A DNA stretch of 64,000 nucleotides from Patescibacteria group bacterium (GCA_018818205.1 JAHISJ010000012.1:21523-85522), one strand, 5' to 3'; shown: positions 3,425 to 25,765, counted from the first letter of the stretch. Notes: generated by a model from the letters alone, not told the origin. Made by a program: numbers and translations.

Positions 3425-3531
3425 CCCTAACAAACATATTCTTACTTGCCAGCATTTCTATTTTGAAGTTCGGATATGATGCTAGATTTGGTATTTATTG
3501 GTAAAGAGTTCGGGTATACGCTAGTTGTATG
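3425..3531 (+). repeat. possible first attC-like site (CCCTAAC ... GTTGTAT)
   Basis: Terminal motifs match the array consensus, but the right part is an inverted copy of the E element seen at 7800-7892. Confidence 0.3.
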
Positions 3532-3893
3532 ACATACATGTTTTCCTTTCGGGGCTATCGCCCCGGCTCTTAAAAAGAATCCGATTTTGTTTTTCTACAT
3601 TACAGAAGGGGTGTATGGTGTTTTCTCCGCTATCGCTCCGAAAACAATTTTATTTATAAGGGGAAAAGAAATTCAATTTTCCAGGTTTAAGTGATTTTAA
3701 AATACGTTATGAAGGCGGAAAAATACCGTTTTTTTGTTTCAAAAAAACGACTTTATTTATAGCAAAAAGGAGATTTATTAGTTATAATTAAAGCAAAATC
3801 TAACCATTCGTTTTTTGCAAAAACAATGAAAAAAATAGCGGAGATAATAAAGGACACAAATTACAGATTCTCATTATTAGATGAGATGTCCTT

Positions 3894-4235
3894 TTGCAAA
3901 ATAACCTTATTGAATTATTTATAAGATATCAATCTATGGATATTTTATATTTAATAATTCCTTCGGTAATTGCTTTTGCAATTATATACTATACCGTTTA
4001 TTACCTTCTCTCTTTAAGAGAACAAAAAATTAGAGATAAGGTGGCCAATGAATTGCTGAGCGATTTTGACTATGAAAAAGAAAAAAAGGAAATTAAATCC
4101 TATGCAAATCTTTTCCAGGTAATTCAAATGTGTCCTATTTGTATCTCATCTTTGGTCTTAAGAGATGGAAAATATGGAGAATTTTGGGGTTGCTCAAGCT
4201 TTCCAAAATGTAGATTTACTAAGAACAAATTTTAA
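3894..4235 (+). CDS. membrane protein with C-terminal topoisomerase-type C4 zinc ribbon
   Basis: N-terminal TM helix and C-terminal CPICISSL...GEFWGCSSFPKC. The stop overlaps the ATG of the next gene. Confidence 0.55.
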   Translation: MQNNLIELFIRYQSMDILYLIIPSVIAFAIIYYTVYYLLSLREQKIRDKVANELLSDFDYEKEKKEIKSYANLFQVIQMCPICISSLVLRDGKYGEFWGCSSFPKCRFTKNKF

Positions 4236-4236
4236 A

Positions 4237-5355
4237 ATGGGCTATTACGAAGACAAAAAACAAGAGTTAGAAGAGTTACTTATCCTAATAAAGGGCGAAA
4301 AAGAGAAGTTAAGAGTTGCTGCACTAAGCGAAAGAAAACAACTAGACGAAGAATTAGAGAAATGTGAAATGATTGAAAATGGTGTAAAGCAACTTACTAA
4401 AGAACGACAAATTGGATTCCCTTGGTTAGCGAAGGCATATGAAGAATTGTTTGCCTTGAGAGATTATGAGCTAGTAAGTTTTCTAAGAAATAAAAGCAAA
4501 CCAGCGTTGAGGGCGAGTGAAATCGTTAAAGAGCAAACCGGGCTTAGAAGAGAAGCAGAGAGCAAAAGGAAAGTTGCTGAATATCTGGTCGAATATTATG
4601 AGTCAATCGCTCCTTTTTTAATAGACTTGAAAGAAGAGGTTGATGATGGTTCTACTGAAGACGGTAAAAGGGTGAACATGGACTATACAAAAGAGGAGAG
4701 AAGTGATGCTGTTTCGGATTATTTAACAAAAGAGGAATATAGGAAGCTTTCGACGGAAAAGAAAAATCAACTTGCTTTAGATAGATTTTGGAAAAGAAGA
4801 AAGTCAAAACAGTTTATTGGTAAACTTTATGAGAGGTATGTAGGTTATCTTTATGAAGAAAAAGGATATGATGTTGATTATGTCGGTATCTTCAAAGGCT
4901 ATGAAGACTTAGGCAGGGACTTAATTTGTGAAAATAAAGATGAAATGGTAGTTATTCAATGTAAAAATTGGTCTAAGTTTAGAACTATTTATGAAAAACA
5001 CATCTTTCAATTTTTTGGAACCGTTTTTCAATATGAAGATGAAAATCCAAATAAGAAAATTAGGGCAATTTTTTACACCTCGACAAGCTTATCAGATTTG
5101 GCTTCAAGATTTGCAAAAAAGCTCGGAATTGAATTAATCGAAAACTTCAAATTAGATCAAAATTATCCATCAATAAAGTGCAATATTTCCAGATCTTCTG
5201 GGGATAAAATTTATCATTTACCCTTTGATCAGCAATATGATAAAACGAAAATAGAAAAAGATAAGGATGAGTTTTATTGTAAAACGATAAAGGAGGCAGA
5301 GAGAGCGGGATTTAGAAGAGCTTTTCGTTATTCGAAATTAGGTAGTCGGAAATAA
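4237..5355 (+). CDS. Mrr-cat type restriction endonuclease domain protein
   Basis: C-terminal block YERYVGYLYEEKGYDVDYVG...DLGRDLICENKDEMVVIQCKNW matches the Mrr-like PD-(D/E)xK pattern. The ORF track starts at 4165; ATG 4237 is coupled to the upstream stop. Confidence 0.55.
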   Translation: MGYYEDKKQELEELLILIKGEKEKLRVAALSERKQLDEELEKCEMIENGVKQLTKERQIGFPWLAKAYEELFALRDYELVSFLRNKSKPALRASEIVKEQTGLRREAESKRKVAEYLVEYYESIAPFLIDLKEEVDDGSTEDGKRVNMDYTKEERSDAVSDYLTKEEYRKLSTEKKNQLALDRFWKRRKSKQFIGKLYERYVGYLYEEKGYDVDYVGIFKGYEDLGRDLICENKDEMVVIQCKNWSKFRTIYEKHIFQFFGTVFQYEDENPNKKIRAIFYTSTSLSDLASRFAKKLGIELIENFKLDQNYPSIKCNISRSSGDKIYHLPFDQQYDKTKIEKDKDEFYCKTIKEAERAGFRRAFRYSKLGSRK

Positions 5356-5405
5356 GAAGATTAAAATTTATCAGATGAAAATTAAAGAGAAAGAGGATAC
5401 TTGGA

Positions 5406-6344
5406 ATGAAAAACTCAATAATCAAATTAGTGAAAGATGAGATTAGGTGGCTTCTAAATTGCAGGTTTTTCTGGATTTTCACAATTATCATTTTAATAAT
5501 TTCTCTTATACTGGAAATTCTTCTTGATTTTGTGAGTGTGCTTGCTAAAGGAATTTTGAAATATTTCATTTTATGCCAAGGTGAGGGAATCGAAGTAAAA
5601 ATAGGTCTTGTGATTGCAATAGGTGCATTATTTGTTGGCATCCAAGAATATATTAGGAAGGATAAAGAAAAGCGTGAATTGCAAAAACAGCATAAGAGAG
5701 CTATTTTAAACGCAATAAAACAGGAACTCTCAATAATGGGTAGCTGGTTAAGAACTGATTATACAAAAGAAAAACTTAATTCTGATAAGAATTATCGGTG
5801 GCATCCTTTTTCTATGGTTCTTCACCCAACAGGCTCAAACTACACTGTTAGGTCTATAGATCCTATCAAATCATATTTATTTTCTGATGATTATATTTTC
5901 GCATTAGTAAAATTTAACCAATATGTTGAAAATTTTCGGAGATTAATTGAAAGAGACATGCTTTATTCTTTTTCTTTTCCTGTACTTCTGCTTCGAGCAG
6001 AAGAAATATTAGACAAAAAAAATCACAAAGCCGCTGATTATATTGATGATTTAAGAGAAAAAAAGAATAAGAAAAAGAAATTAAATCTAGTAGAACTATT
6101 TATTGTGAAAAAGCAGGAATCTATGTTTGCTGTTCATATTGATGGAATAGGTGAGAAATCATGTGAATCGCTTTGCAAGAGTTTTCATGAACTTGAAGAT
6201 TTGACTGAAAAAGAAATCAACAATATTAATGATAATCAAGGATTTAATAAACCAAACTATTTTATTTTTGTTTATTTATTTCAACTTATTTTAATTTCGT
6301 TTGTAATACTTTTATTTATATCTTTATACATCTGCTTTAGTTGA
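5406..6344 (+). CDS. hypothetical membrane protein (TM segments at both ends)
   Basis: Hydrophobic N- and C-termini. No recognisable catalytic motif. Confidence 0.4.
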   Translation: MKNSIIKLVKDEIRWLLNCRFFWIFTIIILIISLILEILLDFVSVLAKGILKYFILCQGEGIEVKIGLVIAIGALFVGIQEYIRKDKEKRELQKQHKRAILNAIKQELSIMGSWLRTDYTKEKLNSDKNYRWHPFSMVLHPTGSNYTVRSIDPIKSYLFSDDYIFALVKFNQYVENFRRLIERDMLYSFSFPVLLLRAEEILDKKNHKAADYIDDLREKKNKKKKLNLVELFIVKKQESMFAVHIDGIGEKSCESLCKSFHELEDLTEKEINNINDNQGFNKPNYFIFVYLFQLILISFVILLFISLYICFS

Positions 6345-6356
6345 AAACAATAGAAA

Positions 6357-6968
6357 ATGGGCAAAAACCAAAAAGAGATAATAGAGAAGTTCAAAAAATT
6401 TACAAGGTGGATGCAAGGTGACATAGAAAAAGCATTGTTTAAGGCCAATGCTAATTTTCTTGTAACTATGGGTATTATGAATTACATCGAAATACTTGGC
6501 GGTTTCATTATTGGTTATTATCAAAAGGATAATCAGGATCAAATAGAAATTAATACAAAAGGTAGAAAACTTGAAACTCTTACTAAATATAGGTTTGGGA
6601 GTTTTTTTTCAAAATTAGGTAGTGATTATGAAAATCTTCTAAATCAAAAAAATTTAAACGTGTATAATGAATTACGGTGTGGTCTAACTCATGAATATTT
6701 ACCTAAAAAGAAAAAATTTTGTATTTACGGACCTGATAAACCGATGGAAGAAAACGAAATAAAGGTGTTGATGAAGAAGTATAAAGACATCGAGGTTGCA
6801 ATTACGTATTCTGCTAGAAAATGGGAGATAAACAACCCAATTCTTTATCGAGATTTTTCAAAGGCCATCGAGGTATTAACAGAGAACATTGTAAATTCAA
6901 AGAAAGATATTTTTAGAATTAATTTCTTTGAGATGGCTCGAAAAATCAATCTTAATAACTTTAATTAA
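6357..6968 (+). CDS. hypothetical protein with a HEPN-like Rx4H motif
   Basis: NELRCGLTHEY contains R-x4-H. Otherwise unassigned. Confidence 0.3.
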   Translation: MGKNQKEIIEKFKKFTRWMQGDIEKALFKANANFLVTMGIMNYIEILGGFIIGYYQKDNQDQIEINTKGRKLETLTKYRFGSFFSKLGSDYENLLNQKNLNVYNELRCGLTHEYLPKKKKFCIYGPDKPMEENEIKVLMKKYKDIEVAITYSARKWEINNPILYRDFSKAIEVLTENIVNSKKDIFRINFFEMARKINLNNFN

Positions 6969-7008
6969 GAAGAAGCCTTAGAAAGTATTACCCTAAACTA
7001 CTAATAAC

Positions 7009-7758
7009 ATGACCTCCTTCTACAAAATCCCTCGTCAACCCTCCTGGAACTACCCCGGCCCAAACTGGAACCTCTCCCGCTCCAAAATCGATTTATTCCT
7101 AAAATGCCCGAAGTGCTTTTATCTTGATAACAAACTTGGCCTCAAGAGACCTCCGGGCTATCCTTTTAATCTAAACACCGCCGTCGACACCCTCCTTAAA
7201 AAAGAATTCGACATCCACCGGGCAAAAAACACAAAACACCCCCTTCAAGAAAAATACGGCATCGACGCTCGGCCGGTTGCTCATGATGAGCTTGATGAGT
7301 GGAGAGAAAATTTCAAAGGGGTGCGTTATTTTCATGAGCAAACGGGCATGACGGTCACCGGGGCGATAGATGATCTTTGGATCAATTCAAAAGATGAATA
7401 TATGGTCGTTGATTATAAGGCGACGAGTAAGGAAGCGGTTATTGATGAACTTAATGAAGATTGGCAGGATGGGTATAAAAGACAGATGGAAGTTTATCAG
7501 TGGCTGCTAAGGAAGAAAGGTTTGAAGGTTTCAAGGACGGGTTACTTTGTTTATTGTAATGGAATCACCGATAAAAAAGCTTTTGACGGGAAGTTGGAAT
7601 TTGATATAACTTTAATTGACTACCGGGGAAACACGACTTGGATTGAACCGACGCTTCTTGAAATAAAAAAATGCCTCAAGAGCAATAAGATTCCAAAGTC
7701 AGACAAAGAATGTGACCATTGTAAATGGTATGACGCACGAAAAGAATATGAAAAATAA
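7009..7758 (+). CDS. PD-(D/E)xK nuclease, Cas4/RecB-like, with terminal Cys pairs
   Basis: IDDLWI...EYMVVDYKAT gives a D...ExK core. CPKC is near the N-terminus and CDHCKW near the C-terminus, suggesting an Fe-S or Zn site. Confidence 0.5.
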   Translation: MTSFYKIPRQPSWNYPGPNWNLSRSKIDLFLKCPKCFYLDNKLGLKRPPGYPFNLNTAVDTLLKKEFDIHRAKNTKHPLQEKYGIDARPVAHDELDEWRENFKGVRYFHEQTGMTVTGAIDDLWINSKDEYMVVDYKATSKEAVIDELNEDWQDGYKRQMEVYQWLLRKKGLKVSRTGYFVYCNGITDKKAFDGKLEFDITLIDYRGNTTWIEPTLLEIKKCLKSNKIPKSDKECDHCKWYDARKEYEK

Positions 7759-7884
7759 GGAGTTTGGGGTAAGGGGCATTCACCCCTTTAATTCCCCTCT
7801 GCCCCTTACCCCAAACAGAAAAACAAAATCGGATTCTTTTTAAGAGCAATCCCGCTAAAGCGGGATAAAAGGAAAACATGTACG
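7759..7884 (+). repeat. E element (stop-proximal repeat starting AGGAGTTTGGGG...GGGCATTCACCCCT)
   Basis: A homologous copy lies at 13270-13392, and an inverted partial copy at 3525-3595. Contains an 11-bp perfect inverted repeat GGGGTAAGGGG/CCCCTTACCCC. Confidence 0.6.
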
Positions 7885-7958
7885 TCATACAACAGTGAGT
7901 ATCAGACATTTATCTTCGCTTCGCTACGATAAACGTCTGATACTCACGAACGTTAGGT
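7885..7958 (+). repeat. attC-like site (TCATACAAC ... GTTAGGT)
   Basis: 20-bp near-perfect stem GTGAGTATCAGACATTTATC/GATAAACGTCTGATACTCAC flanked by AAC and AACGTT. Confidence 0.6.
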
Positions 7959-8844: not shown

Positions 8845-8861
8845 TCGCAAAAAATACATCA

Positions 8862-8932
8862 TTTAACAGTGAGTATCAGACATTTATCTTCGCTTCGCTA
8901 CGATAAACGTCTGATACTCACGAACGTTGTAT
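8862..8932 (+). repeat. attC-like site (TTTAAC ... GTTGTAT), near-identical to the 7885 site
   Basis: Same stem sequence as at 7893-7949. Confidence 0.6.
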
Positions 8933-8957
8933 GTCATTTCACCATTAAGTTATAAGT

Positions 8958-9578: not shown

Positions 9579-9590
9579 TGGTGAAACGAC

Positions 9591-9661
9591 ATATAACAAA
9601 GAATATCAGAAATTCATTCCGTTCTACTCCGTGAACTTCTGATATTCTCAAACGTTGTACG
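9591..9661 (+). repeat. attC-like site (CATATAAC ... GTTGTAC)
   Basis: Stem GAATATCAGAAATTCA/TGAACTTCTGATATTC. Confidence 0.6.
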
Positions 9662-9693
9662 CCATAAATTTTAAATAATTTTTCTCTACCGAT

Positions 9694-10163
9694 ATGATAA
9701 GAATAACCAAAACAAAAAAAGAAGACCTAGAACAAATCCGCCGCCTTTTCAATGAATATGATTATGATATTGAAAAACACTTCCCCAAAGATCATTAAAG
9801 CTATTGCAACGATTAAACCCTGAGCATAGTGACAATCCAAAACGACGGAAAAACATTCTTCAAGCGATTACTGATAATAAACAAATGTTTCTTGTTGCCA
9901 AAGAACACGAAACTATAATTGGCTGTGTAATTGGGTGGATAGAGCCACTAAAAAATGTAGGGAAATTTGATCAGCTGATTCTATCTAGCCAATCTAAGAA
10001 AAAGGATGCTTTAAATCAACTGTACAATGAGTTAGAAAAATGGTTTAAAACCAAAAAATGTCCTTATGTAATTGTAGACGTGGTTACAAAGAATCCACGC
10101 AAAGAATTATACAAAGAATTTGGCTTTGATACAGTCCTTGAGGAAATGAGAAAAATCATCTAA
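9694..10163 (+). pseudogene. GNAT acetyltransferase, disrupted by a frameshift or stop
   Basis: The N-terminus MIRITKTKKEDLEQIRRLFNEYDYDIEKHFPKDH ends at a stop at 9796. The GNAT core continues in another frame from 9804. Confidence 0.5.
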
Positions 10164-10167
10164 AAAT

Positions 10168-11190
10168 TTACATCGTACAACTAACTATATCTCCATCAAC
10201 CCCTTTTCCGTGGACAACTAGCTCAAGACTCTGAGCTAGTTTTCTTTTCTTTGAAAGAGGAGTCCCTCTGGTCCAAACAGCATGTATAACGTGAGCCATT
10301 TTATTCATAGTGGCAACTAGAGCAACACGGTAAGGCTTGCCTTCGGAGATCTTCTTTTGGAAGAAATCTTGAAAAAGATTAGGTCTTTGCACCGCTACGG
10401 AAGCGGCGTTGTAGAGTCTGGTTCTTAAGATCTTATTGCCTCTTTTAGTAATGTAGCTTTTGCCTTTGACGCTGGTCCCACTCTCGTGGACCCTGGGGTC
10501 TATTCCTACGTAGGCGGTAAGTTTCTTTGCTTTTTTGAAGCGATCGATGCTACCTAATTCCGAAATGAAGCTGATGGCGGTGATAGGACCAACTCCGGGG
10601 ATGGTCCTTAAAAGCGCTTGCTCCTCTTTTCTGTATTCTTTGAGTTTCTTCTCCAGCTCTTTAATCTTTTGGGTTAACGTTTCGTTAACCTCTTGATAGA
10701 CGGAGTTGATCTTCCTTTTAAGGCATTCTTCCTTGTTAACTATCTCATTTTGCTGCAATCTCAGTTTAAGCTTAATAGCGCTGAGATTGTCCCTTTGTCT
10801 AACAAGGCTTTTTAGGACAACTGAATCGGTTGTTTCACTGAATTCGTAACCCGTTCCGGTTGTCAGACAATACCTAATTAAAAGAGCGTCTTTCTTATCG
10901 GTTTTTACGCTTCTAAGGCTTGTTTGGCTTTGTTTTTTGACTATCAGAGGGTTCATGACATTGATTTTGTAGCCACTTTTTTTGCAATCAAAACAAAGTC
11001 TTAAATGATAGCCTCCCGTTGATTCCACGCCAAGAAGAGTTTCTTGTTTTTGATAGTTATTCTTTTTAAGAACGGTTAAGAAGTTTCCAATGCCTTGATT
11101 GTTGTTTAGAAATTTTCTTGGCTCTGAGGCTTCATTAAAACATGCCCAAAAGTCCGCTTTAGCCATATCAATACCTACATATTTATTCAT
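10168..11190 (-). CDS. IS110 family transposase (DEDD N-domain plus Transposase_20 C-domain)
   Basis: N-terminal VGIDMAK. C-terminal IPGVGPITAISFISELGSIDRF. Confidence 0.8.
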   Translation of the reverse strand: MNKYVGIDMAKADFWACFNEASEPRKFLNNNQGIGNFLTVLKKNNYQKQETLLGVESTGGYHLRLCFDCKKSGYKINVMNPLIVKKQSQTSLRSVKTDKKDALLIRYCLTTGTGYEFSETTDSVVLKSLVRQRDNLSAIKLKLRLQQNEIVNKEECLKRKINSVYQEVNETLTQKIKELEKKLKEYRKEEQALLRTIPGVGPITAISFISELGSIDRFKKAKKLTAYVGIDPRVHESGTSVKGKSYITKRGNKILRTRLYNAASVAVQRPNLFQDFFQKKISEGKPYRVALVATMNKMAHVIHAVWTRGTPLSKKRKLAQSLELVVHGKGVDGDIVSCTM

Positions 11191-11393
11191 ATGTTTGTTT
11201 TTAGTTTTACATTTCTACTTACCTAAGATAAAATGTACAAAGAGAAAAAGAAGAAAGAAAAGAAAGAAGAAAAAGAGAAAAAAGTGAGCAGGTGGTCACC
11301 ACCTTTTAAAAGCTAAAGCAGGTTCGTGTGTTATCCGGGGCTACGTCCCCAACTAGCTTATTCGCTTATTAAGGCTTTTAAAGGAGGCTGCAC
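10182..11393 (-). mobile_element. IS110-family insertion sequence lying inside an attC-like site
   Basis: Flanked by CGTACAAC (10174-10181) and GTTAGGC (11394-11400). No obvious terminal inverted repeats, as expected for IS110. Confidence 0.55.
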
Positions 11394-11714
11394 GTTAGGC
11401 GACGGGACTAAAATCCCAACAGCGAATTCGCAGAGCCTCACTTGATAAAAGCATACCAGATGGTATGCTTTTATTATACGAACAGCGTATATGAGGTTCA
11501 AGAAAAAGTGCGTTAATAATTTTCAAAGGTTGCACTTTTTCTTTCACCCAAATTTCGCCTCCTCTATAATAAATCATAAGGAAGTCGGCGAAACTTCTCA
11601 TACACGCATACATTGTGCGAAATAAATTTTTTATCTTGGTGGTAATTTAAAGATTTTGTGATTTAAACAGGGACAGAAAATTTGATTTTTAATTCATTTA
11701 TATAGGGGTAAAAA

Positions 11715-11747
11715 GGTGTTTTCTCCGCTAGGGTTGCGAAAACGATT
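11715..11747 (+). repeat. conserved hairpin motif GGTGTTTTCTCCGCT-N-CGAAAAC upstream of a cassette ORF (second copy at 3617-3649)
   Basis: Both copies lie 20-250 bp upstream of an ORF start. Confidence 0.5.
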
Positions 11748-11767
11748 TATCTACTAATATATTCTAT

Positions 11768-13270: not shown

Positions 13271-13392
13271 GGAGTTTTGAATTTTGGGCATTCACCCCTG
13301 ACCCCTCTGCCCAAAATCCAAAAAGAAAAAGAAATTTGAAATTTTTTTAAAACATGTTTTCTTATCAGAAAACAAAAGAATAAGGGATACAT
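13270..13392 (+). repeat. E element copy 2
   Basis: AGGAGTTTTGAATTTTGGGCATTCACCCCTGACCCCTCTGCCC... begins at the stop codon. Confidence 0.55.
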
Positions 13393-13482
13393 CAGCTAAC
13401 ACGGCATATCTGGTTACGGTTCGCCTCCGGCGAGCCTCTACCCAAATTGCTACGCAACTTCAGATATGAATAACATTGTAGG
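13393..13482 (+). repeat. attC-like site (CAGCTAAC ... ATTGTAG), homologous to the 17425 site
   Basis: Shares TAACACGGCATATC and CCCAAATTGCTACGCAACTTC with the 17425 site. The right core is degenerate. Confidence 0.5.
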
Positions 13483-13556: not shown

Positions 13557-14645
13557 ATGAAAGCATTCGTACCTCACTCATTACCACTAAAGAATCTAGA
13601 CTGGACACAGTTTGTCCACCTTATTGGAAAGGCTAATGCAGATGTAGCACGATTCGATGGATTACTACAGAGTATGCAAAATCCAGTCGTTCTACTTTCC
13701 CCACTTACCACACAAGAAGCTGTTCTTTCTTCTAAAATTGAAGGTACTCAAGCTACCCTAGAGGAAGTACTTGAATTTGAGGCAGACCCTAAAAAGAGAA
13801 CTAAAAAATATGATGACATACAAGAAATTCTGAATTACAGAAAGGCAATGCGTTTCTCTGTAAAAGAATTAGACAAGAAACCCTTGTGTATCAATTTGCT
13901 AAAGAGCATTCACGCTATTCTGCTAGACAGTGTTCGTGGTAAAAATCGAGATCCTGGAAATTTCAGAAAAAGCCAGGTTTATATTGGTAAACCTGGTGCT
14001 GGACTAGAAGCTGCTACTTACATTCCACCGGAACCACACAGAGTTTTAGACAATTTATCAAGCCTAGAAAAATATATTAATTCTGACGAAAAAGATGTTC
14101 TTGTTCAACTTGCAATTATCCATGCACAATTTGAAATCATTCATCCATTCCTTGATGGTAATGGTCGTATGGGTAGAATTCTGATGCCATTATTTTTATA
14201 TAGCAAAAAGGCGTTATCCTCACCAATGTTATACCTGAGCGCTTATTTCGAAAGAAATCGTGATGATTACTATGATAGACTCTCTGGAATTTCTAAAGAA
14301 AATGCTTGGGAAGAGTGGATTATTTATTTTCTTAATGCCGTCATTGAACAGTCTCAGATTAATATCAAAAAAGCGAAATCTATACATGAATTATACGATC
14401 ATAAAAAAATAAAAATTGTTGACTTGACACATTCGCAATTTGCAATAAAGACTTTGGACTTTATTTTCTCTTTTCCAATTTTCAACAGCTCTCAATTTGT
14501 AAAGAAATCTAGAATTCCAAGGGCAAGTGCTGCAAGAATTCTTGGCATATTAGAGAGAGGAGGGGTAATCAATGTGGCAGAAAAGGGCTCAGGGAAAAGG
14601 CCCACAATTTATACTTTTCCAAAATTATTAAGCATTACCGGATAA
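13557..14645 (+). CDS. Fic family protein
   Basis: Fic motif HPFLDGNGRMGR. Confidence 0.8.
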   Translation: MKAFVPHSLPLKNLDWTQFVHLIGKANADVARFDGLLQSMQNPVVLLSPLTTQEAVLSSKIEGTQATLEEVLEFEADPKKRTKKYDDIQEILNYRKAMRFSVKELDKKPLCINLLKSIHAILLDSVRGKNRDPGNFRKSQVYIGKPGAGLEAATYIPPEPHRVLDNLSSLEKYINSDEKDVLVQLAIIHAQFEIIHPFLDGNGRMGRILMPLFLYSKKALSSPMLYLSAYFERNRDDYYDRLSGISKENAWEEWIIYFLNAVIEQSQINIKKAKSIHELYDHKKIKIVDLTHSQFAIKTLDFIFSFPIFNSSQFVKKSRIPRASAARILGILERGGVINVAEKGSGKRPTIYTFPKLLSITG

Positions 14646-14650
14646 TTTCT

Positions 14651-14730: not shown

Positions 14731-14753
14731 TTGATAAAAAGGTTTGCATGCTA

Positions 14754-14902
14754 CCTACAACAGCAACTGTAAGGTAAAAAAATGGCGCCTATTTGATTCG
14801 CTGACGCTTTAGATAGAGTCGCCATTTTTTTACCCAAATTTTGCACTTTATTGATATTAAATAGCGGATGTGCAAAACTTCTTACAGTCGCAAACGTTAG
14901 GC
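14754..14902 (+). repeat. attC-like site (CCTACAAC ... GTTAGGC)
   Basis: Stem GCAACTGTAAGG/CCTTACAGTCGC. Confidence 0.55.
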
Positions 14903-15530: not shown

Positions 15531-15699
15531 ATAAAGTCCTAGATAATAGGAATTGGCTCTTCTTTTCAATCCTTGACATCTCAAGTCCTCCATGTTATAA
15601 TACTGACTAAATCTGTCTCTATTTTTAAACTTCGCCTAACAGAGAGTATCAGAAATTCATCTCCACTCCGTTCCGATAAACTTCTGATACTCTCGAACG

Positions 15700-17025
15700 C
15701 ACTAGTGTTGCGTCAAAACTCCCCCGGTTTAAGCCGTTTTTGATGATTATTCTCTAGAGTTTGTAATCCAGATTGTGCAATTAGTGTAGTTAAAGGGGTT
15801 TTCTCAAATTGAGAGACCTGTAAAATTTGTAGAATTTCGTAGAGATTTCGTTTGATCTTTAGTTTCTTTTTCATAATAGCTACTAGAAGAAAGGTGGATA
15901 TTGCAATGCAAATTTGTGTTTTTACTGCATTGAACGAATAGCCCCAGAAGACTTGAATTTTAAGATGCTGCTTTATCCATTTGAAAAAGAGTTCTATCTG
16001 CCAACGATGTTTGTAAAGGTTGGCTATGGTTTTAGCCGGTATGTTGAAATTGTTAGTAAGATAAATATAGGATCTGTTTGTTTCCCGGTCAACGTATTTA
16101 ATACGTCTCAGTTTCTCCGGATAGTGCTTACGTGAATAAAAATGTTTTAGTTTAATTATTTGGTCGCATCTAAGTCCGGTGGCTTTATCTACTTTGTTTG
16201 AATAAATTCTTTTAAACGATAAGCTTTTTTTTGAGCGGACAATGAAAAACGCTTCATGCCGGTTAACAGTCATTAACCTTTTAAAATCGAGATAGCCTCG
16301 ATCCATAATATATATTGCGTCTTTTTCAAATTCGATATTGTCCAGGAAATTCACATCATGTGTTTTCGCTTTGGTTATGAGGAAAAATGAAGGAATGGTG
16401 CCTTTTAAATCAAGTTGCGTGTGAATCTTTACCGCTGATTTTTGAAGTTCAAAGTATGCCCACTTGAATGTTGCTAAACACAGATCTATTACCGTTGAAT
16501 CAAGAGCATAGACAGAATTTTCAAGCTCGATTGAAAACTCATTGTCATAAAGGTACAGACGACGTGTGATGCCAATGAGATACTCGGTAAAATCACGATG
16601 AATTCTCCAGTCACGAAATTGGTTAGCACGCGATAATGTGGAAAGGACGAATTTCCTTGCCCTAAAGCCTAGATGATACAGTTGGTTGGGATGGGCATTC
16701 AAACACAGAACTATTCCACGCAGACTTTTTAAAGCAGTTAGTTGTCCAAACATCAATGAGAGGAATTGGTCGCGGCAAGTTAGATTATATATATTTTTGT
16801 TTCCATTGTATCTCTCAACACATTTTTCAAATTCGTACCCGGAAACATATTCTACAACTTGAGAAAAGATATATTTTTCCTTGTTCATAGATAATTAGCA
16901 AATTAATTGAAAAACACGCTAATTATCCCATTCCAAGTTCAAATCGTAAAATTGTAAAATAGCTGGATTTGATGTAGTGTTAGGTAAAATACTTGATACT
17001 ATTCGTGGAAGACGCAACGCTAGTG
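15700..17025 (-). mobile_element. IS4-family insertion sequence
   Basis: Termini CACTAGTGTTGCGTC and GACGCAACGCTAGTG form an imperfect inverted repeat. Alternatively the element is TTGCGTC...GACGCAA with an 8-bp target duplication. Confidence 0.55.
15713..16888 (-). CDS. IS4 family DDE transposase
   Basis: YKHRWQIELFFKWIK matches the Y(2)R(3)E(6)K signature. Confidence 0.75.
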   Translation of the reverse strand: MNKEKYIFSQVVEYVSGYEFEKCVERYNGNKNIYNLTCRDQFLSLMFGQLTALKSLRGIVLCLNAHPNQLYHLGFRARKFVLSTLSRANQFRDWRIHRDFTEYLIGITRRLYLYDNEFSIELENSVYALDSTVIDLCLATFKWAYFELQKSAVKIHTQLDLKGTIPSFFLITKAKTHDVNFLDNIEFEKDAIYIMDRGYLDFKRLMTVNRHEAFFIVRSKKSLSFKRIYSNKVDKATGLRCDQIIKLKHFYSRKHYPEKLRRIKYVDRETNRSYIYLTNNFNIPAKTIANLYKHRWQIELFFKWIKQHLKIQVFWGYSFNAVKTQICIAISTFLLVAIMKKKLKIKRNLYEILQILQVSQFEKTPLTTLIAQSGLQTLENNHQKRLKPGEF

Positions 17026-17057
17026 ACTGGAACGTTATCGGAAATAAATTCTAGCCT

Positions 17058-17402
17058 ATGAGTAAAAAAACAAGCTTTTCGTTCAAAAGAGATAAATATA
17101 AGGCTACTAGGGGCGGTCATTCGCGATTATTAAATGTTTGCTGTCGTAAGTGCGAGAATATTGTTGCCGTTTATCAAAAAGATGGTCCAGGCGATTTGCG
17201 ACGTATGTACATGGACAGAATTTTCGCTCCTGCGGAGTTAACAGACTTACAGGATTTAAGCATAAAAGACGCTCCCATGTTAAAATGTAAAAAATGTGGT
17301 GAAGTGCTTGGAACGCCTTATATTTATCCAAAGGAAAAACGAAAAGCTTTTCGGCTTTATCAAGACGCAGTTATTAAGCGACTAAGAAAGTTAAGCGAAT
17401 AA
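17058..17402 (+). CDS. zinc-ribbon protein (CxxC...CxxC)
   Basis: CCRKCEN ... CKKCGE. Confidence 0.4.
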   Translation: MSKKTSFSFKRDKYKATRGGHSRLLNVCCRKCENIVAVYQKDGPGDLRRMYMDRIFAPAELTDLQDLSIKDAPMLKCKKCGEVLGTPYIYPKEKRKAFRLYQDAVIKRLRKLSE

Positions 17403-17424
17403 CCACGACGGCTAGAATTTACAT

Positions 17425-17503
17425 CCGATAACACGGCATATCCGGTTCCGCTTCGCTACACCCCAATTGCTACGCAACTTCGGATGATCCGCAAACGTTA
17501 GAA
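17425..17503 (+). repeat. attC-like site (CCGATAAC ... GTTAGAA)
   Basis: Stem CATCCG/CGGATG plus a conserved inner block. Confidence 0.55.
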
Positions 17504-17521
17504 GCAATAAAATTTGAAAAC

Positions 17522-17920: not shown

Positions 17921-17948
17921 GAAACTAATAAACATTCAAATTTTACAG

Positions 17949-18087
17949 CTTCTAACAAAGCATAAAAGGCGAAACGGTATGTGTGGAAAGTAAAAGAATT
18001 GACAGCATCGTTCGCCCAAATTTCGCACACCTCAATTGAAAGAATTCATAGAGTGTGCGAAACTTCTTCTACACTTGAACGTTGTAC
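17949..18087 (+). repeat. attC-like site (TTCTAAC ... GTTGTAC)
   Basis: Terminal motifs match, and the conserved CCCAAATTTCGCAC inner block is present. Confidence 0.5.
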
Positions 18088-18125
18088 GCCATTCGCCTTA
18101 GCCCTAATGCCACTAAAAACGTTTT

Positions 18126-18629: not shown

Positions 18630-18638
18630 GGCGAACGG

Positions 18639-18699
18639 CGTACAACAGCGCATTATCCTAAATCGCTTCGCGACTTCGGATAATGCGCGAACGTTAAGT
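18639..18699 (+). repeat. attC-like site (CGTACAAC ... GTTAAGT)
   Basis: Stem GCGCATTATCC/GGATAATGCGC. Confidence 0.6.
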
Positions 18700-18725
18700 G
18701 AAATACATAATTATTTTTTTATTAA

Positions 18726-19253: not shown

Positions 19254-19264
19254 TTATGTACTTC

Positions 19265-19388
19265 ACTTAACAAGGTATAAGCGGTTCCGTTCAGTCGTTT
19301 CACTCCTTCACTTCACCCATATTGCACGGGTGTACGCTTTCAGCGTATTATACACCCGCGCAACATCGCTTGCACCTAGACGTTATCG
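19265..19388 (+). repeat. attC-like site (ACTTAAC ... GTTATCG)
   Basis: Long imperfect palindrome GGTGTACGC.../...GTATTATACACC. Confidence 0.5.
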
Positions 19389-19428
19389 GAAATTAAGAAA
19401 AGTCTCCGTTTGGTGATTTTAAATTTTT

Positions 19429-20028: not shown

Positions 20029-20053
20029 GGTATGGAGAGCTGAACCGACTTTT

Positions 20054-20256
20054 TCTTAACATCTGATAACAATGAACAACTGGTTTCAGAAAATTGACTC
20101 TTTGTAATTTTAAAGGACTGTCAATTTTCTTCCACCCATATTTTTCGCCTCCGAATGGTGGTAATTCAACGCTACTGCTCGATAAACAATTGTACTAAAA
20201 TGGCCGAAAGTGCAATAGTAACGGCGAAAAACATCAGATATTCACGAACGTTATAC
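20054..20256 (+). repeat. attC-like site (TCTTAAC ... GTTATAC), long
   Basis: Terminal motifs match, and CACCCATATTTTTCGCCTCC inner block is present. Confidence 0.45.
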
Positions 20257-20320
20257 GACATATTTTGATGGCAATAAAAAACGAATGTTTTAAAAACTTT
20301 TATTAAGATACAATATTATT

Positions 20321-21004: not shown

Positions 21005-21086
21005 AAGTTTTTAAAATTATTATGAAATTTCCATCAAAATACGCTAAAGCCACGCTGCGCTCTCACTCCACTTTGTTCCGTTCGGG

Positions 21087-21188
21087 TCATATAACAAGGG
21101 ATATACGGATTAGCCCTCGGCTCGGGCTTCACCCAAATTTTTCTTCCGCTTCGCTACAGAAAAACTTCGTATATCCTTAACGTTGTGT
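21087..21188 (+). repeat. attC-like site (TCATATAAC ... GTTGTGT)
   Basis: Stem GGATATACG/CGTATATCC. Confidence 0.55.
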
Positions 21189-21218
21189 GTAATTCAAATT
21201 GTTTCTAAATATTTTTCT

Positions 21219-21677
21219 ATGATTAAAATTCGGACATTCAGAAATAGTGACACTTCTGAAATAATCAGACTTACTACCACGGTAGTAAAGGAATTTCTAG
21301 ATTATACCGATGAGGACTTGCAAGATTTAATCACTGATTTATCTGATATAAAGAAAAACTATCTTGATAAGGGCGGAAATTTTATTGTATGCACAATCAA
21401 TGATAATATTATTGGAACTATCGCATTACTACCTCAGAAAAAACATGTAGTTAAATTAAAAAGAATGTACTTATACAAAGCATACCGAGGGAAAGAGCAT
21501 GGTTCAAACATTTTTAATTTTGCGGAAAACTGGTGCAAGGACAATGATTTTAATAAAATAATTTTATCAACCTACCCGCCTTTTACTGGTTCAAAATTTT
21601 ACAAAAAAATGGGATTCAATATATACAAAAATATTGGTAAAAAAACGTTTTACGAAAAATATTTAGAAACAATTTAA
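21219..21677 (+). CDS. GNAT family N-acetyltransferase
   Basis: KRMYLYKAYRGKEHGSNIF acetyl-CoA binding region. The ORF track starts at 21183; the likely ATG is at 21219. Confidence 0.6.
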   Translation: MIKIRTFRNSDTSEIIRLTTTVVKEFLDYTDEDLQDLITDLSDIKKNYLDKGGNFIVCTINDNIIGTIALLPQKKHVVKLKRMYLYKAYRGKEHGSNIFNFAENWCKDNDFNKIILSTYPPFTGSKFYKKMGFNIYKNIGKKTFYEKYLETI

Positions 21678-21705
21678 ACTCTCCGCTGTCGCTCCGCTCT
21701 TCGGG

Positions 21706-21766
21706 TCATACAACAGCGCATATCCAAAATCGCTTCGCGACTTCGAATGAAACGCAAACGTTATGT
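21706..21766 (+). repeat. attC-like site (TCATACAAC ... GTTATGT)
   Basis: Stem GCGCATATCC / GAATGAAACGC (imperfect). Confidence 0.55.
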
Positions 21767-21832
21767 GACATGCCATTAATTTTTAATGTTCAATAGAGCC
21801 TAGAATGATATAATTATTAAATATTAATTAAA

Positions 21833-22939
21833 ATGATGGGTATCGAAGATGCAAAAAATCCAGAAATTATAGATCAATCGATAGAACATCCTGTTGCCGA
21901 TATTCCAAAGTCAGAAAAACAAACTGCGCAAAAAGAAGCTTCACCAGAAAAAAGAATGCAAGCTGAAAAAACAGTGTTGGATACACTTGGGATTGGATCA
22001 GATGAAAAGTTAGATGATTTTGATAAAAAACTAAATGAAGCAACAAAATCATTGCCCAGATACCAACAAATTGAGAAAAAGCTTGAAGGAATTGAACGAC
22101 AAAATCTGCCTTATGAACTATTCAAAGCGTTAAAGAGAGATTCAGATGAAGAACAGATTGATCAGAATGCGCCAAAAGACGGGGTTTTGATTCAATCAAT
22201 GAAACAAGGACCACTTGCGTGCGCAGGCAGAACCTTAATAGCCTCATCTCTTTTACAAGAACATGGGATAGGCCACGTGCCTGTTTCTGCGCCAAAACAT
22301 GCTTTAATAATTATTGAGCAATCGCCAGATACGATGGCATATTTTGACGCTAACAATAATCTTTTCTTCACATTTCCAAAATCAGCCCTTGACGGCTATG
22401 AAGGGTTAGAAACATCTGCAGAATGTAGGCTCAAGGAATACACTCCAAGAGAAACGGATTTTAATGACGGAATAACGACAGCTTATTCTCACTTTGTTGC
22501 AATGCCTGCAAAAGAAGCTATTGGAAGGCAATATTTGGGCAACGTTGCGGCAGCTCTAAATGGAAATGAAGAATTTGAGTCAAGTGGCATTACGAAAGAT
22601 GAAGAAGCCTCTGAAGCCACTCATCAAATTGAAACCGAAGTATATGGCGTAAACCCAGTACTCGTTAGTTTCCATTCAAGAGTCGAGACACTTTATAAGA
22701 AAGAAAAGGCACGAACTGCAAGCTATAGAAAAGTAGCAAGTGAAGTTTTGCAAACACACCCCACACATGATGATTTTGTTTCTTTTTTTACAAAGGTTTT
22801 AGACGGAAATATCAGCGACGGAATTCCCTTTATTAAAAATGCTTCTCCTGAACGAAAAAGAGTATACGCTGACAATGTCTGGGATTTTCTGCAGAAAGAA
22901 ATAAAGACGAAAGCAAAAGAGGAAGATAAAAATATTTAA
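21833..22939 (+). CDS. hypothetical protein
   Basis: ORF only. Confidence 0.4.
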   Translation: MMGIEDAKNPEIIDQSIEHPVADIPKSEKQTAQKEASPEKRMQAEKTVLDTLGIGSDEKLDDFDKKLNEATKSLPRYQQIEKKLEGIERQNLPYELFKALKRDSDEEQIDQNAPKDGVLIQSMKQGPLACAGRTLIASSLLQEHGIGHVPVSAPKHALIIIEQSPDTMAYFDANNNLFFTFPKSALDGYEGLETSAECRLKEYTPRETDFNDGITTAYSHFVAMPAKEAIGRQYLGNVAAALNGNEEFESSGITKDEEASEATHQIETEVYGVNPVLVSFHSRVETLYKKEKARTASYRKVASEVLQTHPTHDDFVSFFTKVLDGNISDGIPFIKNASPERKRVYADNVWDFLQKEIKTKAKEEDKNI

Positions 22940-22946
22940 TGGCACA

Positions 22947-23017
22947 TCATATAACAAGGTTTATCTGAAATTCACTCCACTACGTTCCATGATCTTCAGA
23001 TAAACAATACGTTGTCT
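22947..23017 (+). repeat. attC-like site (TCATATAAC ... GTTGTCT)
   Basis: Stem GTTTATCTGAA/TTCAGATAAAC. Confidence 0.6.
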
Positions 23018-23157
23018 GAAATACATTTTTTATACTACTTAAATGCTTTGTGTGCACAAGTAGTGTTTGCCTAATTGCTACATATATGATACAATTGACA
23101 GCAATAAAATGGCTTTAATAAGACATATTTAGTAACTAAATGCTACATAATTAATGT

Positions 23158-24312
23158 ATGGTTGTTACATCTAAACATTCAAAAATCACACTCTTTGAAC
23201 CAGATTTCGGGTCAAGTCTTACTGATCTAATTATTGAGCTTGATTATCTTCGTAAAAAACCTCTTGGTGGAACTACTCACCCAGTGATTTTTTTTCAACT
23301 AAAAAATATATTCCATATGCTTGAGAGCATTGGTTCTTCTAGAATCGAGGGGAACCACACAACAGTAGCTGAGTATATTGAGACAAAGATAGAAGGGAAA
23401 AAATCTAAAAATGAAAAAGATATAGAAATTCAGAACCTTGAGAAAGCAATGGAATTTATTGATAAAAATGTCAAAAAATATAAAGTAAACAGAATTTTTC
23501 TAAGCGAGCTACATAAACAAGTAGTAAAAGATCTTACCTCACCTCCTAGTGGCGAAGGAAGTGTAGATCCTGGTCAATACAGAGCGAAGAATTGTGAAAT
23601 TGTGAAATCTAAACATATTCCGCCAGACTTCACACAAGTAGATGATTACATGAAAGAATTTTTTAACTTTATCAATAAAGAGAGTGCTGCAAAATACGAT
23701 TTGTTAAAAGTTGCCGTTTCTTATCATCGTTTTGCATGGATTCATCCATTTGATAATGGGAATGGAAGAACCGTTAGATTACTAACATATGCGATGTTAG
23801 TAAAACAAGGATTCAATGTAAACGTTGGAAGAATTTTGAATCCAACGGCTATTTTTTGTATTGATCGCAAGAAATACTATGATGCACTTTCTTGGGCCGA
23901 TAGGGGTACAAAAAAAGGAGAACTTGAATGGTGTGAATACGTTCTGTCAGGACTCAAGAAAGAAATAGAAAAAATTGATAAGCTTTCTGACTATGAATAT
24001 CTTGCAAATAAAATTCTGATTCCCATGATATCATACTCTTTAGATAGGAAGACTATTACAGATCTAGAGTCTAAAATATTGCGAATTGCTGTTGAGAAAC
24101 AGGTTTTTATGTCTTCAGATATAAAAACACTTATGCCTAATAAAGTATATACTGAGAGATCTAGAGTTTTACGAAAACTAAAGAACAAGAAGATGATTGC
24201 CCCCGAAAAGGGTAAATCAAGGAAGTATACCCTAAGATTTGATAATAACTATCTCCTAAGAGGTGTCATTGATGCTTTAGAAAAAGAGGGATTTATTCCA
24301 ATTAGAAATTAA
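23158..24312 (+). CDS. Fic family protein
   Basis: HPFDNGNGRTVR. Confidence 0.8.
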   Translation: MVVTSKHSKITLFEPDFGSSLTDLIIELDYLRKKPLGGTTHPVIFFQLKNIFHMLESIGSSRIEGNHTTVAEYIETKIEGKKSKNEKDIEIQNLEKAMEFIDKNVKKYKVNRIFLSELHKQVVKDLTSPPSGEGSVDPGQYRAKNCEIVKSKHIPPDFTQVDDYMKEFFNFINKESAAKYDLLKVAVSYHRFAWIHPFDNGNGRTVRLLTYAMLVKQGFNVNVGRILNPTAIFCIDRKKYYDALSWADRGTKKGELEWCEYVLSGLKKEIEKIDKLSDYEYLANKILIPMISYSLDRKTITDLESKILRIAVEKQVFMSSDIKTLMPNKVYTERSRVLRKLKNKKMIAPEKGKSRKYTLRFDNNYLLRGVIDALEKEGFIPIRN

Positions 24313-24331
24313 ATAGAAGAGAATTTACTTC

Positions 24332-24397
24332 AGACAACTAAGAATATCAGAAATTCATTCCGCTCCGATAAGCTTCTGTTACACACAAACGTTAGGC
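24332..24397 (+). repeat. attC-like site (AGACAAC ... GTTAGGC)
   Basis: Homologous to the 9591 site. Confidence 0.55.
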
Positions 24398-24417
24398 GAT
24401 GTAATTATTAAATTTTT

Positions 24418-24954
24418 ATGAAATTATTAGAACTAGCTACCGATGAGGTAGTGACAATGGATGATTATCCAATACATGATTTATTAGACGGTGATAGTGT
24501 AATAATAAAACTGTATTTTAGAATTTTTCAAAAAAAGTGCACAAGTATTATTGCTAGAGTTATTGTTCTCCCAAAAGAATTGATAGTGTCTTCTTTCACT
24601 GAAGCAACAAAGAAAAATTTTGCAAATTTTGAAAAGAGCCACCCAAAAGTAAAATACTTTGCACTAGATGGTAATCATCGAACTACTGCTGCATCACTCA
24701 CGCAATCCAAAATTCCAGCACTACTTCTTAAAAATGATAAGGATTGTAAAGATATACAAAAAATGAATGATAGCGCTGGTGTTTTTAGACCTTATACTAA
24801 TAATACGCTCAATGAATGTGTTCTTGAGTTAAAAGATCATTTTTTAAAAGTTGATCAGTTTTATACTGTAAGAGAAAAAACTAGAATGATGGTTGAAGAT
24901 ATATCAATAGATATGCCTCAATACATGAGGGATAGCTTTAACCGAAAAATATAA
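24418..24954 (+). CDS. ParB/Srx-like nuclease domain protein (tentative)
   Basis: ALDGNHRTTAA resembles the ParB N-terminal domain core motif. Confidence 0.35.
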   Translation: MKLLELATDEVVTMDDYPIHDLLDGDSVIIKLYFRIFQKKCTSIIARVIVLPKELIVSSFTEATKKNFANFEKSHPKVKYFALDGNHRTTAASLTQSKIPALLLKNDKDCKDIQKMNDSAGVFRPYTNNTLNECVLELKDHFLKVDQFYTVREKTRMMVEDISIDMPQYMRDSFNRKI

Positions 24955-24978
24955 TAATTACATCGCCTAACGTTCGAG
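24955..24978 (+). repeat. minimal junction TAATTACATC-GCCTAAC|GTTCGAG; its left part is the inverted partner of 24388-24407
   Basis: A 20-bp perfect inverted repeat (AACGTTAGGCGATGTAATTA / TAATTACATCGCCTAACGTT) flanks ORF 24418-24954. Confidence 0.6.
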
Positions 24979-24991
24979 AATATCATAGAAC

Positions 24992-25672
24992 ATGAATATT
25001 AAAAAACATAGCACAGCAAAAGGCTCACAACGCGCCACCGGCATTGTTGTGATCATTGACGTCCTTCGAGCATGCACAACTATTCCTATACTTCTGAAGA
25101 ACGGTGCAGACACCATTATCCCTGTAAAAACCATTGATGATGCTCAGAAATATCTAAACCGTGGTTATGTGCTTATAGGAGAAGGTAAAAATGGTTGTAT
25201 CCACGATTCATTCCATTATTGCAACTCACCTTCTGAAATTCACTCGATAGATTTTACAGAAAAAAATTTAGTAATTAGAAGTAACAACGCAACACAAGCA
25301 ATTCTCAATATTGAGAAGGCTACAGACATTATTTTAGCTTCATTTGTTAATCTTGAAGCGATAGTAACCTACATCAATGATCACTACGCCAAAGATGTGG
25401 CGCTTGTCCCTCTTGGCAGATTAAACCAAGAGGGGTTGGAAGATGAATTATGCGCTGAAGCAATCAAATTGCGTCTCGAGAATACCTTTTTTGATTTCGA
25501 AAAGATGAAAAAAGAGATAAATGACTGTCCTTGTGCAAAGCTCGTCAGAGATACGCTAGATAAACCAGAAGATGTGGCATTTGCATTAGAACTTAATTCA
25601 TATCCAATAGTTCCCAAAGTCTATACAGAAGACGGGCAAAAAGTTATCAAAAATGCTAGCCTTAATGACTAA
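24992..25672 (+). CDS. ComB-like 2-phosphosulfolactate phosphatase family protein
   Basis: N-terminal GIVVIIDVLRACTT is typical of the family. Confidence 0.45.
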   Translation: MNIKKHSTAKGSQRATGIVVIIDVLRACTTIPILLKNGADTIIPVKTIDDAQKYLNRGYVLIGEGKNGCIHDSFHYCNSPSEIHSIDFTEKNLVIRSNNATQAILNIEKATDIILASFVNLEAIVTYINDHYAKDVALVPLGRLNQEGLEDELCAEAIKLRLENTFFDFEKMKKEINDCPCAKLVRDTLDKPEDVAFALELNSYPIVPKVYTEDGQKVIKNASLND

Positions 25673-25682
25673 GAAACAAACA

Positions 25683-25765
25683 TCATATAACAAGTCCATC
25701 AAAAACTCACTCCACGTCGCTCTATGAACTTCGGGTACTCTCGGGCACTAGGCAAACTGTTAACC
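25683..25765 (+). repeat. attC-like site (TCATATAAC ... GTTAACC), last in array
   Basis: Homologous to the left half of the IS-split site at 15634. Confidence 0.5.

Follow-up and report, generated by a model that had tools for sequence, protein, structure and literature searches.

Sedentary chromosomal integrons and clusters of attC sites lacking integron-integrases (CALINs) hold co-oriented, mostly single-gene cassettes separated by imperfect hairpin sites, conserved in structure more than in sequence, which end in RYYYAAC (R'') and GTTRRRY (R') boxes and recombine at a G|TT crossover (Cury et al. 2016; PMC9024848). Further traits of these systems are a divergent integrase gene with an attI site, strain-level turnover of cassettes, cargo of defence and toxin type, SoFic included, and insertion of IS110-family elements into sites. 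The same traits, the integrase and attI in relatives, recur in the locus described here, an array of gene cassettes in a 64,000-nt stretch of DNA from a Patescibacteria group bacterium (GCA_018818205.1 JAHISJ010000012.1:21523-85522; this whole stretch is hereafter the window, and coordinates are counted from its first letter). We consider it likely, at a probability of about 80%, that the locus is the cassette array of a gene-capture platform of integron-like type, characteristic of the candidate phyla radiation (CPR)/Patescibacteria, from which the recombinase has been lost here while attI and about 18 cassettes remain.

Arrays in metagenome-assembled genomes (MAGs) outside the classical hosts, mostly with no neighbouring integrase, are known from archaea as well; archaeal IntI enzymes, however, are reported to carry the IntI-specific additional domain, and archaeal attC to have bacterial-type folds (PMC9668308), whereas that domain is missing from the recombinase associated with the sites described here. 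In the literature the additional domain is treated as defining and as necessary for IntI activity (PMC9668308, citing Messier & Roy 2001). The IntegronFinder 2.0 survey (PMC9024848) does not list CPR, and a survey of permafrost from 2026 reported that 97% of contigs with 'integron-type' recombinases had no detectable attC, suggesting novel attC (PMC13323075). In the literature we found no description linking integrons, attC or cassette arrays to CPR/Patescibacteria. A second group for comparison comprises Xer/dif and the elements that exploit it (XerA/dif, XerS/difSL, CTX phage), which resemble the present system in having a Xer-clade recombinase and, directly ahead of its gene, a core site in which a short spacer separates two inverted arms. 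In XerS/difSL this site closely precedes the recombinase gene, and CTX phage uses a hairpin as its partner site.

Hairpin sites of the array

The array is bracketed by the genes for tRNA-Ser(TGA) (3209-3295, plus strand), the left chromosomal anchor of the platform, and tRNA-Arg(GCG) (26492-26565, plus strand), on the right chromosomal flank, both identified by ARAGORN and Rfam. The ca. 23 kb between them have a G+C content of 0.32-0.38, against 0.40-0.44 in the flanks. A preliminary description of the locus, made by reading the sequence, had proposed at least 17 attC-like sites in this interval. Sixteen sites with both boxes (a1-a16) were found, all on the plus strand, together with a17, a collapsed R''|R' junction, and a18, a terminal site that is degenerate. 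The site at 3425-3530, where the proposed array began, proved to be an attI remnant and not an attC. The box motifs it had quoted were all in place, with GCCTAAC at 15634, four copies of CATATAAC, two each of TCATACAAC and CGTACAAC, and GTTAGGC at 11394, 14896 and 24391.

The sites follow a common plan of R'' (RYYYAAC), one A, a stem of 11-13 bp, a variable loop of 20-150 nt, the return stem, RAAC and R' (GTTRRRY); in long-type sites two inner hairpins flank a CACCCAAATT motif. The stem is continuous, starting 1 nt past R'' and stopping 4 nt short of R', and asymmetries are confined to the 1/4-nt loop and an A.C mismatch that recurs among the sites, with a bulged base in a13 only. The R arm is effectively 11-12 nt long (GTTRNNNGNNAT), like that of attI. 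The bottom strand, whose folding the preliminary description had singled out for checking, gave the marginally more stable fold in 12 of 15 sites. Fold z-scores were as low as -7.8.

Pairing within the stems was supported by covariation. Of the cells in an alignment of 15 trimmed sites, 81% pair in the stated structure, against 29-37% with the partner slid, and compensatory changes were found in 11 of the 13 stem pairs. RNAalifold returned no structure from the full-length MAFFT alignment, in which the variable loops are misaligned. With a covariance model (R1) of the short site form, built from the array's own sites, eight sites were recovered at E<5e-4, every one on the plus strand within the array; elsewhere in the window R1 found nothing convincing, and it had no match in the RecG surroundings of 77 other genomes, which total 1.2 Mb. 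R1 misses the long CACCCAAATT type, both in the window and in contigs L206-L212 (L numbers denote metagenome or related contigs bearing loci that were compared with the window). Long sites were recovered by a structure-only scan (AAC, 12-nt stem, ..., stem, ACGTT), which gave 10 matches within the array, all of them plus-strand, and a single one in the rest of the window, against ca. 2.8 in shuffled windows and 29 in 1.2 Mb of control DNA, so that the sites are far in excess of chance. Together with the cassette boundaries described below, these tests show that the hairpins are recombination sites, and not generic repeats, as had been argued before.

Sites matched by R1 include a1 (7887-7958; short type, R1 38.7 bits, bottom-strand fold -19.3 kcal/mol, z -7.2), a2 (8861-8932; sequence, fold and R1), a3 (9591-9660; after a ClpP-like cassette, R1 41.9 bits, E 3e-7), a10 (18640-18699; R1 41.1 bits) and a15 (22949-23017; R1 41.4 bits). 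Long-type sites are a5 (13394-13481; with a CCCAAATT motif and a degenerate R', ATTGTAG, from sequence and fold), a6 (14755-14902; after a SoFic cassette, fold -29.9 kcal/mol, z -7.0, structure scan 11/12), a9 (17950-18087; motif and fold), and, by fold and structure scan, a11 (19265-19388), the 193-nt a12 (20064-20256) and a13 (21089-21188), which is near-identical to a site in L207. All of these are on the plus strand.

Cassettes and their boundaries

The interval contains 24 plus-strand open reading frames (ORFs) of unrelated function, where about 25 had been claimed, and two minus-strand transposase genes, and comprises about 18 cassettes. The cargo includes a Zn-ribbon protein, an Mrr nuclease, a Cas4-like PD-(D/E)XK nuclease, a ClpP-like protein, two GNATs, an amine oxidase, two NUDIX proteins, a HAD-like phosphatase, an Asp/Glu racemase, ComB and two SoFic-type Fic proteins, the last being anti-phage defence cassettes at 13557-14645 and 23158-24312 (PADLOC 390 and 144 bits). 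Cassette 1 (3525-7952, plus strand) is 4.4 kb long and holds five genes, identified with Pfam and PADLOC as the Zn-ribbon, the Mrr-type nuclease, two unknowns and the Cas4-like PD-(D/E)XK nuclease; a shorter variant of it is present in L117. A promoter scan of the cassettes gave chance-level numbers only.

Each unit has the layout TT-RNNNG...gene(s)...RYYYAAC - A - 11-13-bp stem - variable loop - stem - RAAC - G. With crossover between the G and the TT of R', the first bases of a cassette are complementary to its own R'' and not to that of the next cassette. This was seen in the array, where the 17 nt before the AAC of a site match the reverse complement of the sequence after the GTT of the preceding site at a mean of 12.4 of 17 positions, compared with 5.9 for the site's own R' side and 6.7 +/- 2.1 for unrelated pairs. 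Complementarity between start and end extends over 17-30 nt in 12 of 18 cassettes and reaches ca. 75 nt in cassette 1, in which 3528-3600 is the reverse complement of 7816-7893. The same computation on class-1 cassettes (blaVIM-1, aac(6')-Ib, aph(3')-XV, aadA1) gave 10-12 nt, which validates the test. Between AAC and GTT the bodies of a1 and a2 do not differ, but their outer boxes do, and each set of boxes matches its own cassette.

The cassette at 17035-17497, encoding 114 amino acids, recurs in L113 and L110 at 86% identity in other contexts, after a different long-type site in L113 and after an attI-like sequence in L110, and in both the homology starts and stops at the GTT on either side. 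Cassette boundaries thus lie at G|TT and cassettes move as units, which bears out the proposal of a cassette array with attC-type sites between tRNA-Ser and tRNA-Arg.

The same observations bear on the notion of a tRNA-targeted genomic island strewn with generic palindromes (terminators, repetitive extragenic palindromes or copies resembling miniature inverted-repeat transposable elements) and holding no cassettes. The low G+C, the two bracketing tRNA genes and the insertion sequence (IS) elements would suit such an island, as would the tyrosine integrase that adjoins a tRNA gene in relatives; yet the palindromes are strand-specific and covary, none is followed by a T-run, homology with other loci begins and ends exactly at the GTT of a site, and no repeat of the tRNA-Ser 3' end occurs anywhere in the window. 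A classical tRNA island or generic repeats were ruled out on the cassette-exact homologies and this lack of a tRNA 3'-end repeat, and we give the idea next to no credence.

Recombinase and attI in related loci

The short-site pattern was matched in at least 119 metagenome contigs, many of them from groundwater, including 0.2-um filtrate samples from Hainich, and the others bearing JGI/ENA contig identifiers only; metagenomes of groundwater and sediment commonly contain the site family. Among the matched contigs listed R1 found 212 sites, often several per contig and on one strand. All ORFs of the loci listed and of the window were searched with IntI1, the query sequence having been checked against NF011946 (799 bits over residues 1-337). 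Ten matches were obtained in the loci (E 1e-33 to 1e-43) and none in the window. In 10/10 of these integrase-bearing loci the gene adjoins the array on the opposite strand, reading divergently. The encoded recombinase has ca. 270 amino acids and aligns over its full length with IntI1 at 32% identity. Against TIGR02249, for which the cut-off is 265, it was matched in two stretches at 206-224 bits, and against NF040815 (XerA/'integron integrase', cut-off 220) at 218-234 bits; among solved structures it matched VchIntIA (IntI4) at 2.5e-43, archaeal XerA at ca. 1e-41 and XerD at 1e-26. From these comparisons it is about equally near to IntI and to archaeal XerA. The family is large: a search at E<=1e-30 gave at least 6056 homologues, of which the 120 best are 71-99% identical, and NCBI assigns homologues to Patescibacteria, Portnoybacteria, Pacebacteria and Gracilibacteria.

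A conserved attI lies ca. 110 nt 5' of the recombinase start codon and consists of TTCGTATAAYATACAA, ca. 25 nt and CGYATAAWAACGA|GTTRNNNG. In outline, two repeats are followed by ...AACGA|GTTRNNNG. The arrangement of attI and divergent integrase was found in the 10 metagenome loci and in L206-L212. Four contigs have an identical integrase (P0007) and a common chromosomal side and differ in their arrays. Two of them, L206 and L207, are the same up to ...AAAAACGA|GTTATA, after which L207 has one additional cassette (PALP) ending in ...CCCTAAC|GTTATACGCAATTC and L206 continues straight into GTTATACGCAATTC. The two contigs therefore differ by precisely one cassette at attI, an instance of the cassette-wise variation among relatives that the preliminary description had named as a check. 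L206 also has two hairpin sites with genes on the integrase strand (680-880, 2758-2853), upstream of the usual divergent cassettes, and this may be an inverted array segment. In L212 the array carries restriction-modification, OLD-type and RadC genes.

On its other side the recombinase gene is followed by a convergent tRNA-Ser (CGA, GGA, GCT) or transfer-messenger RNA (tmRNA) gene 70-770 nt past its 3' end, or ca. 2 kb in L153. A tRNA-Ser/tmRNA neighbour was found in L206/L207, L212, L200, L186, L153 and L210, as in the window (3209-3295; anticodons CGA, GGA, GCT and TGA overall), with tmRNA replacing tRNA-Ser in the contig of GCA_021736215.1, the integrase of which is named Candidatus Gracilibacteria by NCBI. 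Recombinases from different CPR classes share 71-99% identity, compared with less than 50% for the RecG proteins of these classes. This identity, together with the constant adjacency, suggests that the whole platform may be mobile and target tRNA-Ser/tmRNA genes.

The position and form of attI invite a different interpretation, in which the recombinase is the cell's sole Xer, 'attI' is the chromosomal dif and the cassettes are Xer-exploiting elements, similar to integrative mobile elements exploiting Xer (IMEX), stacked at dif. The attI reads as an Xer core site, [TGCGTATAA][AAACGA][GTTATATGAAA], which we take to resemble Escherichia coli dif, and lies just upstream of the recombinase gene in the manner of XerS/difSL; the NCBIfam models for XerA and for IntI give equally good scores, and the family is very widespread in CPR. 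Against this, the units are some 18 small cassettes of single accessory genes without replication or phage functions, the recombinase is as near to IntI4 as to XerA, and its gene is absent from the locus in the present genome. No terminus signal was seen, GC skew tracking gene orientation with no terminus-type switch (left flank -0.108, right -0.12) over 72 kb, which are too little to locate a terminus. The neighbouring tRNA-Ser and tmRNA genes are of different kinds, which suggests insertion and not a fixed terminus. We consider this interpretation improbable, although a Xer/dif role could coexist with cassette capture.

The remnant platform in this genome

No attI had been visible to the preliminary description. 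One is nevertheless present as a remnant at 3470-3530 (plus strand), recognized by its similarity to the attI of L186, with two repeats (TTCGGATATGATGCTAG, TTCGGGTATACGCTAG) followed by the G|TT crossover at 3524. Window positions 3470-3535 are 82% identical to the L186 attI (2069-2135), both repeats and the crossover (TTCGGGTATACGCTA|GTTGT) included. The remnant has no hairpin fold. L186 is from a close relative, its tRNA-Ser region being 77-92% identical to the window and one of its sites nearly the same as a3, and it has the order tRNA-Ser, one ORF, integrase gene on the minus strand, attI and cassettes, with attI ca. 117 nt upstream of the integrase start. The L186 integrase gene itself shows a 1-nt frameshift (1201-1260) ahead of the region of the catalytic Tyr and is either a pseudogene or affected by an assembly error.

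In the window only 175 nt of unrelated sequence separate attI from tRNA-Ser. Profile and IntI1 searches found no tyrosine recombinase in the window, in agreement with what had been noted before, nor in the 7.8 kb further upstream. Since attI is kept and the DNA between it and tRNA-Ser is short and unrelated, the integrase gene has been lost from the locus. As the array comprises 16-18 sites, and neither the window nor the 7.8 kb upstream holds an integrase, it is of CALIN type, as had been proposed, provided that its sites count as attC. It could still move if a recombinase copy acts from elsewhere in the genome.

Insertion sequences and decay

Two sites are interrupted by IS elements, of which one had been noticed before. 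Site a4 of a GNAT cassette (10175-11400, plus strand; R'' 10175-10181, R' 11394-11400) is split by an IS110-family element whose transposase gene (10168-11190, minus strand, 340 aa) was assigned with Pfam to DEDD_Tnp_IS110 and Transposase_20 (PF01548 6e-19, PF02371 6e-26). This element had been described as lying exactly between R''- and R'-like boxes. It does split the site, but the final codons of the transposase ORF overlap the R'' box. The ends of the element could not be defined and no bridge-RNA family was matched there in Rfam. Reportedly an IS1111-attC group of IS110-family elements was described by Tetu and Holmes in 2008; the element resembles that group in having an IS110-family transposase gene within a cassette recombination site. 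The second element, IS4-like (15700-17029), lies at the L'/R' border of a7 (15634-17040, plus strand) with a 5-bp target duplication, GAACG, and encodes a 391-aa transposase (15713-16888, minus strand; Pfam DDE_Tnp_1 and DUF4372). With the element removed, a7 folds as a 72-nt hairpin.

Stems are weak in a5, a8, a9, a12, a14 and a16. Site a8 (17426-17503, plus strand, by fold), which ends the cassette 17035-17497, is partly decayed, and the stems of a14 (21708-21766, plus strand; R1 39.5 bits, weak fold) and a16 (24332-24397, plus strand; R1 38.4 bits) have decayed. In the collapsed a17 (24965-24978, plus strand) the hairpin body is gone and R'' GCCTAAC directly abuts GTT; the 17 nt preceding its AAC match the cassette start at 17/17 positions. 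The last site, a18 (25685-25765, plus strand), at the end of the array, is degenerate and has no stable fold. Decayed stems, the collapsed a17, the degenerate a18 and the two IS-interrupted sites fit an array that is no longer maintained, and the array here is largely frozen.

Some further features of the cassettes were observed. The GNAT cassette gene 9691-10163 is seemingly broken, its N-terminal piece (MIRITKTKKEDLEQIRRLFNEYDYDIEKHFPKDH) stopping at ca. 9797 and the remainder forming ORF 9804-10163. A recurrent cassette leader that ends in a hairpin, GTTTTCTCCGC..GCTCCGAAAAC, followed by AATTTTATTTATAA, and a matching trailer with a G-rich hairpin were seen, possibly a promoter or operator. 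They occur in the window at 3524-3668, 7753-7902 and 11714-11760, after attI in L099, L206 and L212, and at the ends of large defence-type cassettes in L152, L161, L195, L146, L164, L181, L107 and L092. A segment of 127 nt (11481-11607) is 96% identical to intra-cassette pieces of the unrelated contigs L161 and L195, and more weakly similar to L201; a 72-aa minus-strand ORF (11395-11613) overlaps it, and it has no Rfam match.

Host and flanking regions

Genes of the left flank are ClpC- and ComF-like, and the right flank holds RecG, RadA and a pilin/TraG-type cluster. When RecG was compared with 185,579 species representatives, its top matches, at 46-47% identity, came from CPR MAGs (Staskawiczbacteria, Parcubacteria, Peribacteria and others), and no close representative genome was found. 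These matches place the host in the CPR/Patescibacteria, as had been supposed, and the gene content is compatible with this. A second assembly (L004) has an identical arrangement of the locus, while arrays at the equivalent RecG-side position were found in 0/77 loci of other CPR genomes.

A minus-strand cluster at 31504-40518 encodes a pilin of the type IV secretion system type and a DUF87/AAA_10/TraG-like ATPase, as described for Patescibacteria. Rfam scans, with gathering thresholds and with E-values, matched neither the sites nor the attI region nor the leader of the IS110 element, and returned only the two tRNAs and a DUF3800-IX RNA (RF02968, 55.5 bits) at 52715-52778, immediately 5' of a DUF3800 protein gene (52778-53413, minus strand). 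The ComF/tRNA-Ser intergenic region 2860-3205 has internal repeats and is rich in hairpins (for example, arms 3132-3160 and 3175-3203); it belongs to no Rfam family, is 77-92% identical to L186 175-380, and may be an undescribed structured RNA.

Discussion

To judge by its short enzyme and the different inner architecture of its sites, the system does not appear to be a canonical integron. Compared with integrons, the recombinase has 270 amino acids and no IntI-specific additional domain, the R-L interval of the sites is paired, with an asymmetric loop of 1 nt versus 4 nt and no conserved bulged bases, terminal complementarity of the cassettes extends over 17-75 nt as against ca. 10-12 nt in class 1, the platform is tied to tRNA-Ser/tmRNA, and the host belongs to the CPR.

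Several results weigh against the integron-like interpretation. The recombinases lack the IntI1 residues ca. 196-250 that make up the IntI-specific domain, with 38 gap residues over IntI1 196-250. Conserved extrahelical bases, which the preliminary description had also put forward for checking, and an unpaired central spacer are absent from the array sites. A surrogate attC covariance model made from 12 class-1 attC sites (R2), which recovers 8 class-1 sites, found no array site in the window (top match 10.9 bits, E 2.4, at an unrelated position), and R1 in turn found 0 of about 13 class-1 attC. No recombinase was seen in this genome, leaving activity here unproven, and a housekeeping Xer role is possible for the recombinase family because it is so widespread and conserved in CPR.

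The failure of R2 bears equally on the view that the locus is an ordinary CALIN served by a canonical IntI, with additional domain, encoded elsewhere, the short recombinase being incidental. The R''/R' boxes are canonical, as are the crossover at G|TT and the way in which the sites are oriented with respect to the ORFs, and archaeal arrays too are mostly without a nearby IntI (PMC9668308). All ten recombinase-holding loci of the site family among the matches listed, however, have the 270-aa type, adjacent and divergent, with the conserved attI, and the one-cassette difference exactly at attI was found in a contig pair with identical short integrases. We therefore regard service by a distant canonical IntI as very unlikely.

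The reading as an integron-like capture platform draws direct support from the structure of the sites, the position of the crossover, the movement of cassettes as units and the arrangement of integrase and attI in relatives. In the mechanism that we propose, a 270-aa tyrosine recombinase encoded between tRNA-Ser (or tmRNA) and the array, and reading away from the array, would be the catalyst; cassettes would enter at attI and leave by recombination between hairpin sites, with crossover at G|TT, and the substrate would be a folded single strand, probably the bottom strand. In the present genome the recombinase gene has been lost from the locus, leaving the array with attI and cassettes, and its sites show decay.

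Beyond this locus, the balance is even as to whether CPR possess a widespread integron-like lineage of their own, sister or precursor of the classical integrons, with a minimal recombinase of IntI/XerA type devoid of the additional domain, hairpins without extrahelical bases, a location at tRNA-Ser/tmRNA genes and horizontal mobility. The origin of integrons from Xer-type recombinases and the genesis of cassettes are open questions, and a simpler family of enzyme and site would make both testable. If the reading is true, the additional domain would be dispensable for cassette capture, and such systems would account for part of the attC-less recombinase contigs of the permafrost survey (PMC13323075). 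In the tiny genomes of CPR the platform would also offer a concrete mechanism by which strains gain and lose accessory and defence genes, such as SoFic, Mrr and the Cas4-like nuclease here and the restriction-modification and OLD genes in L212.

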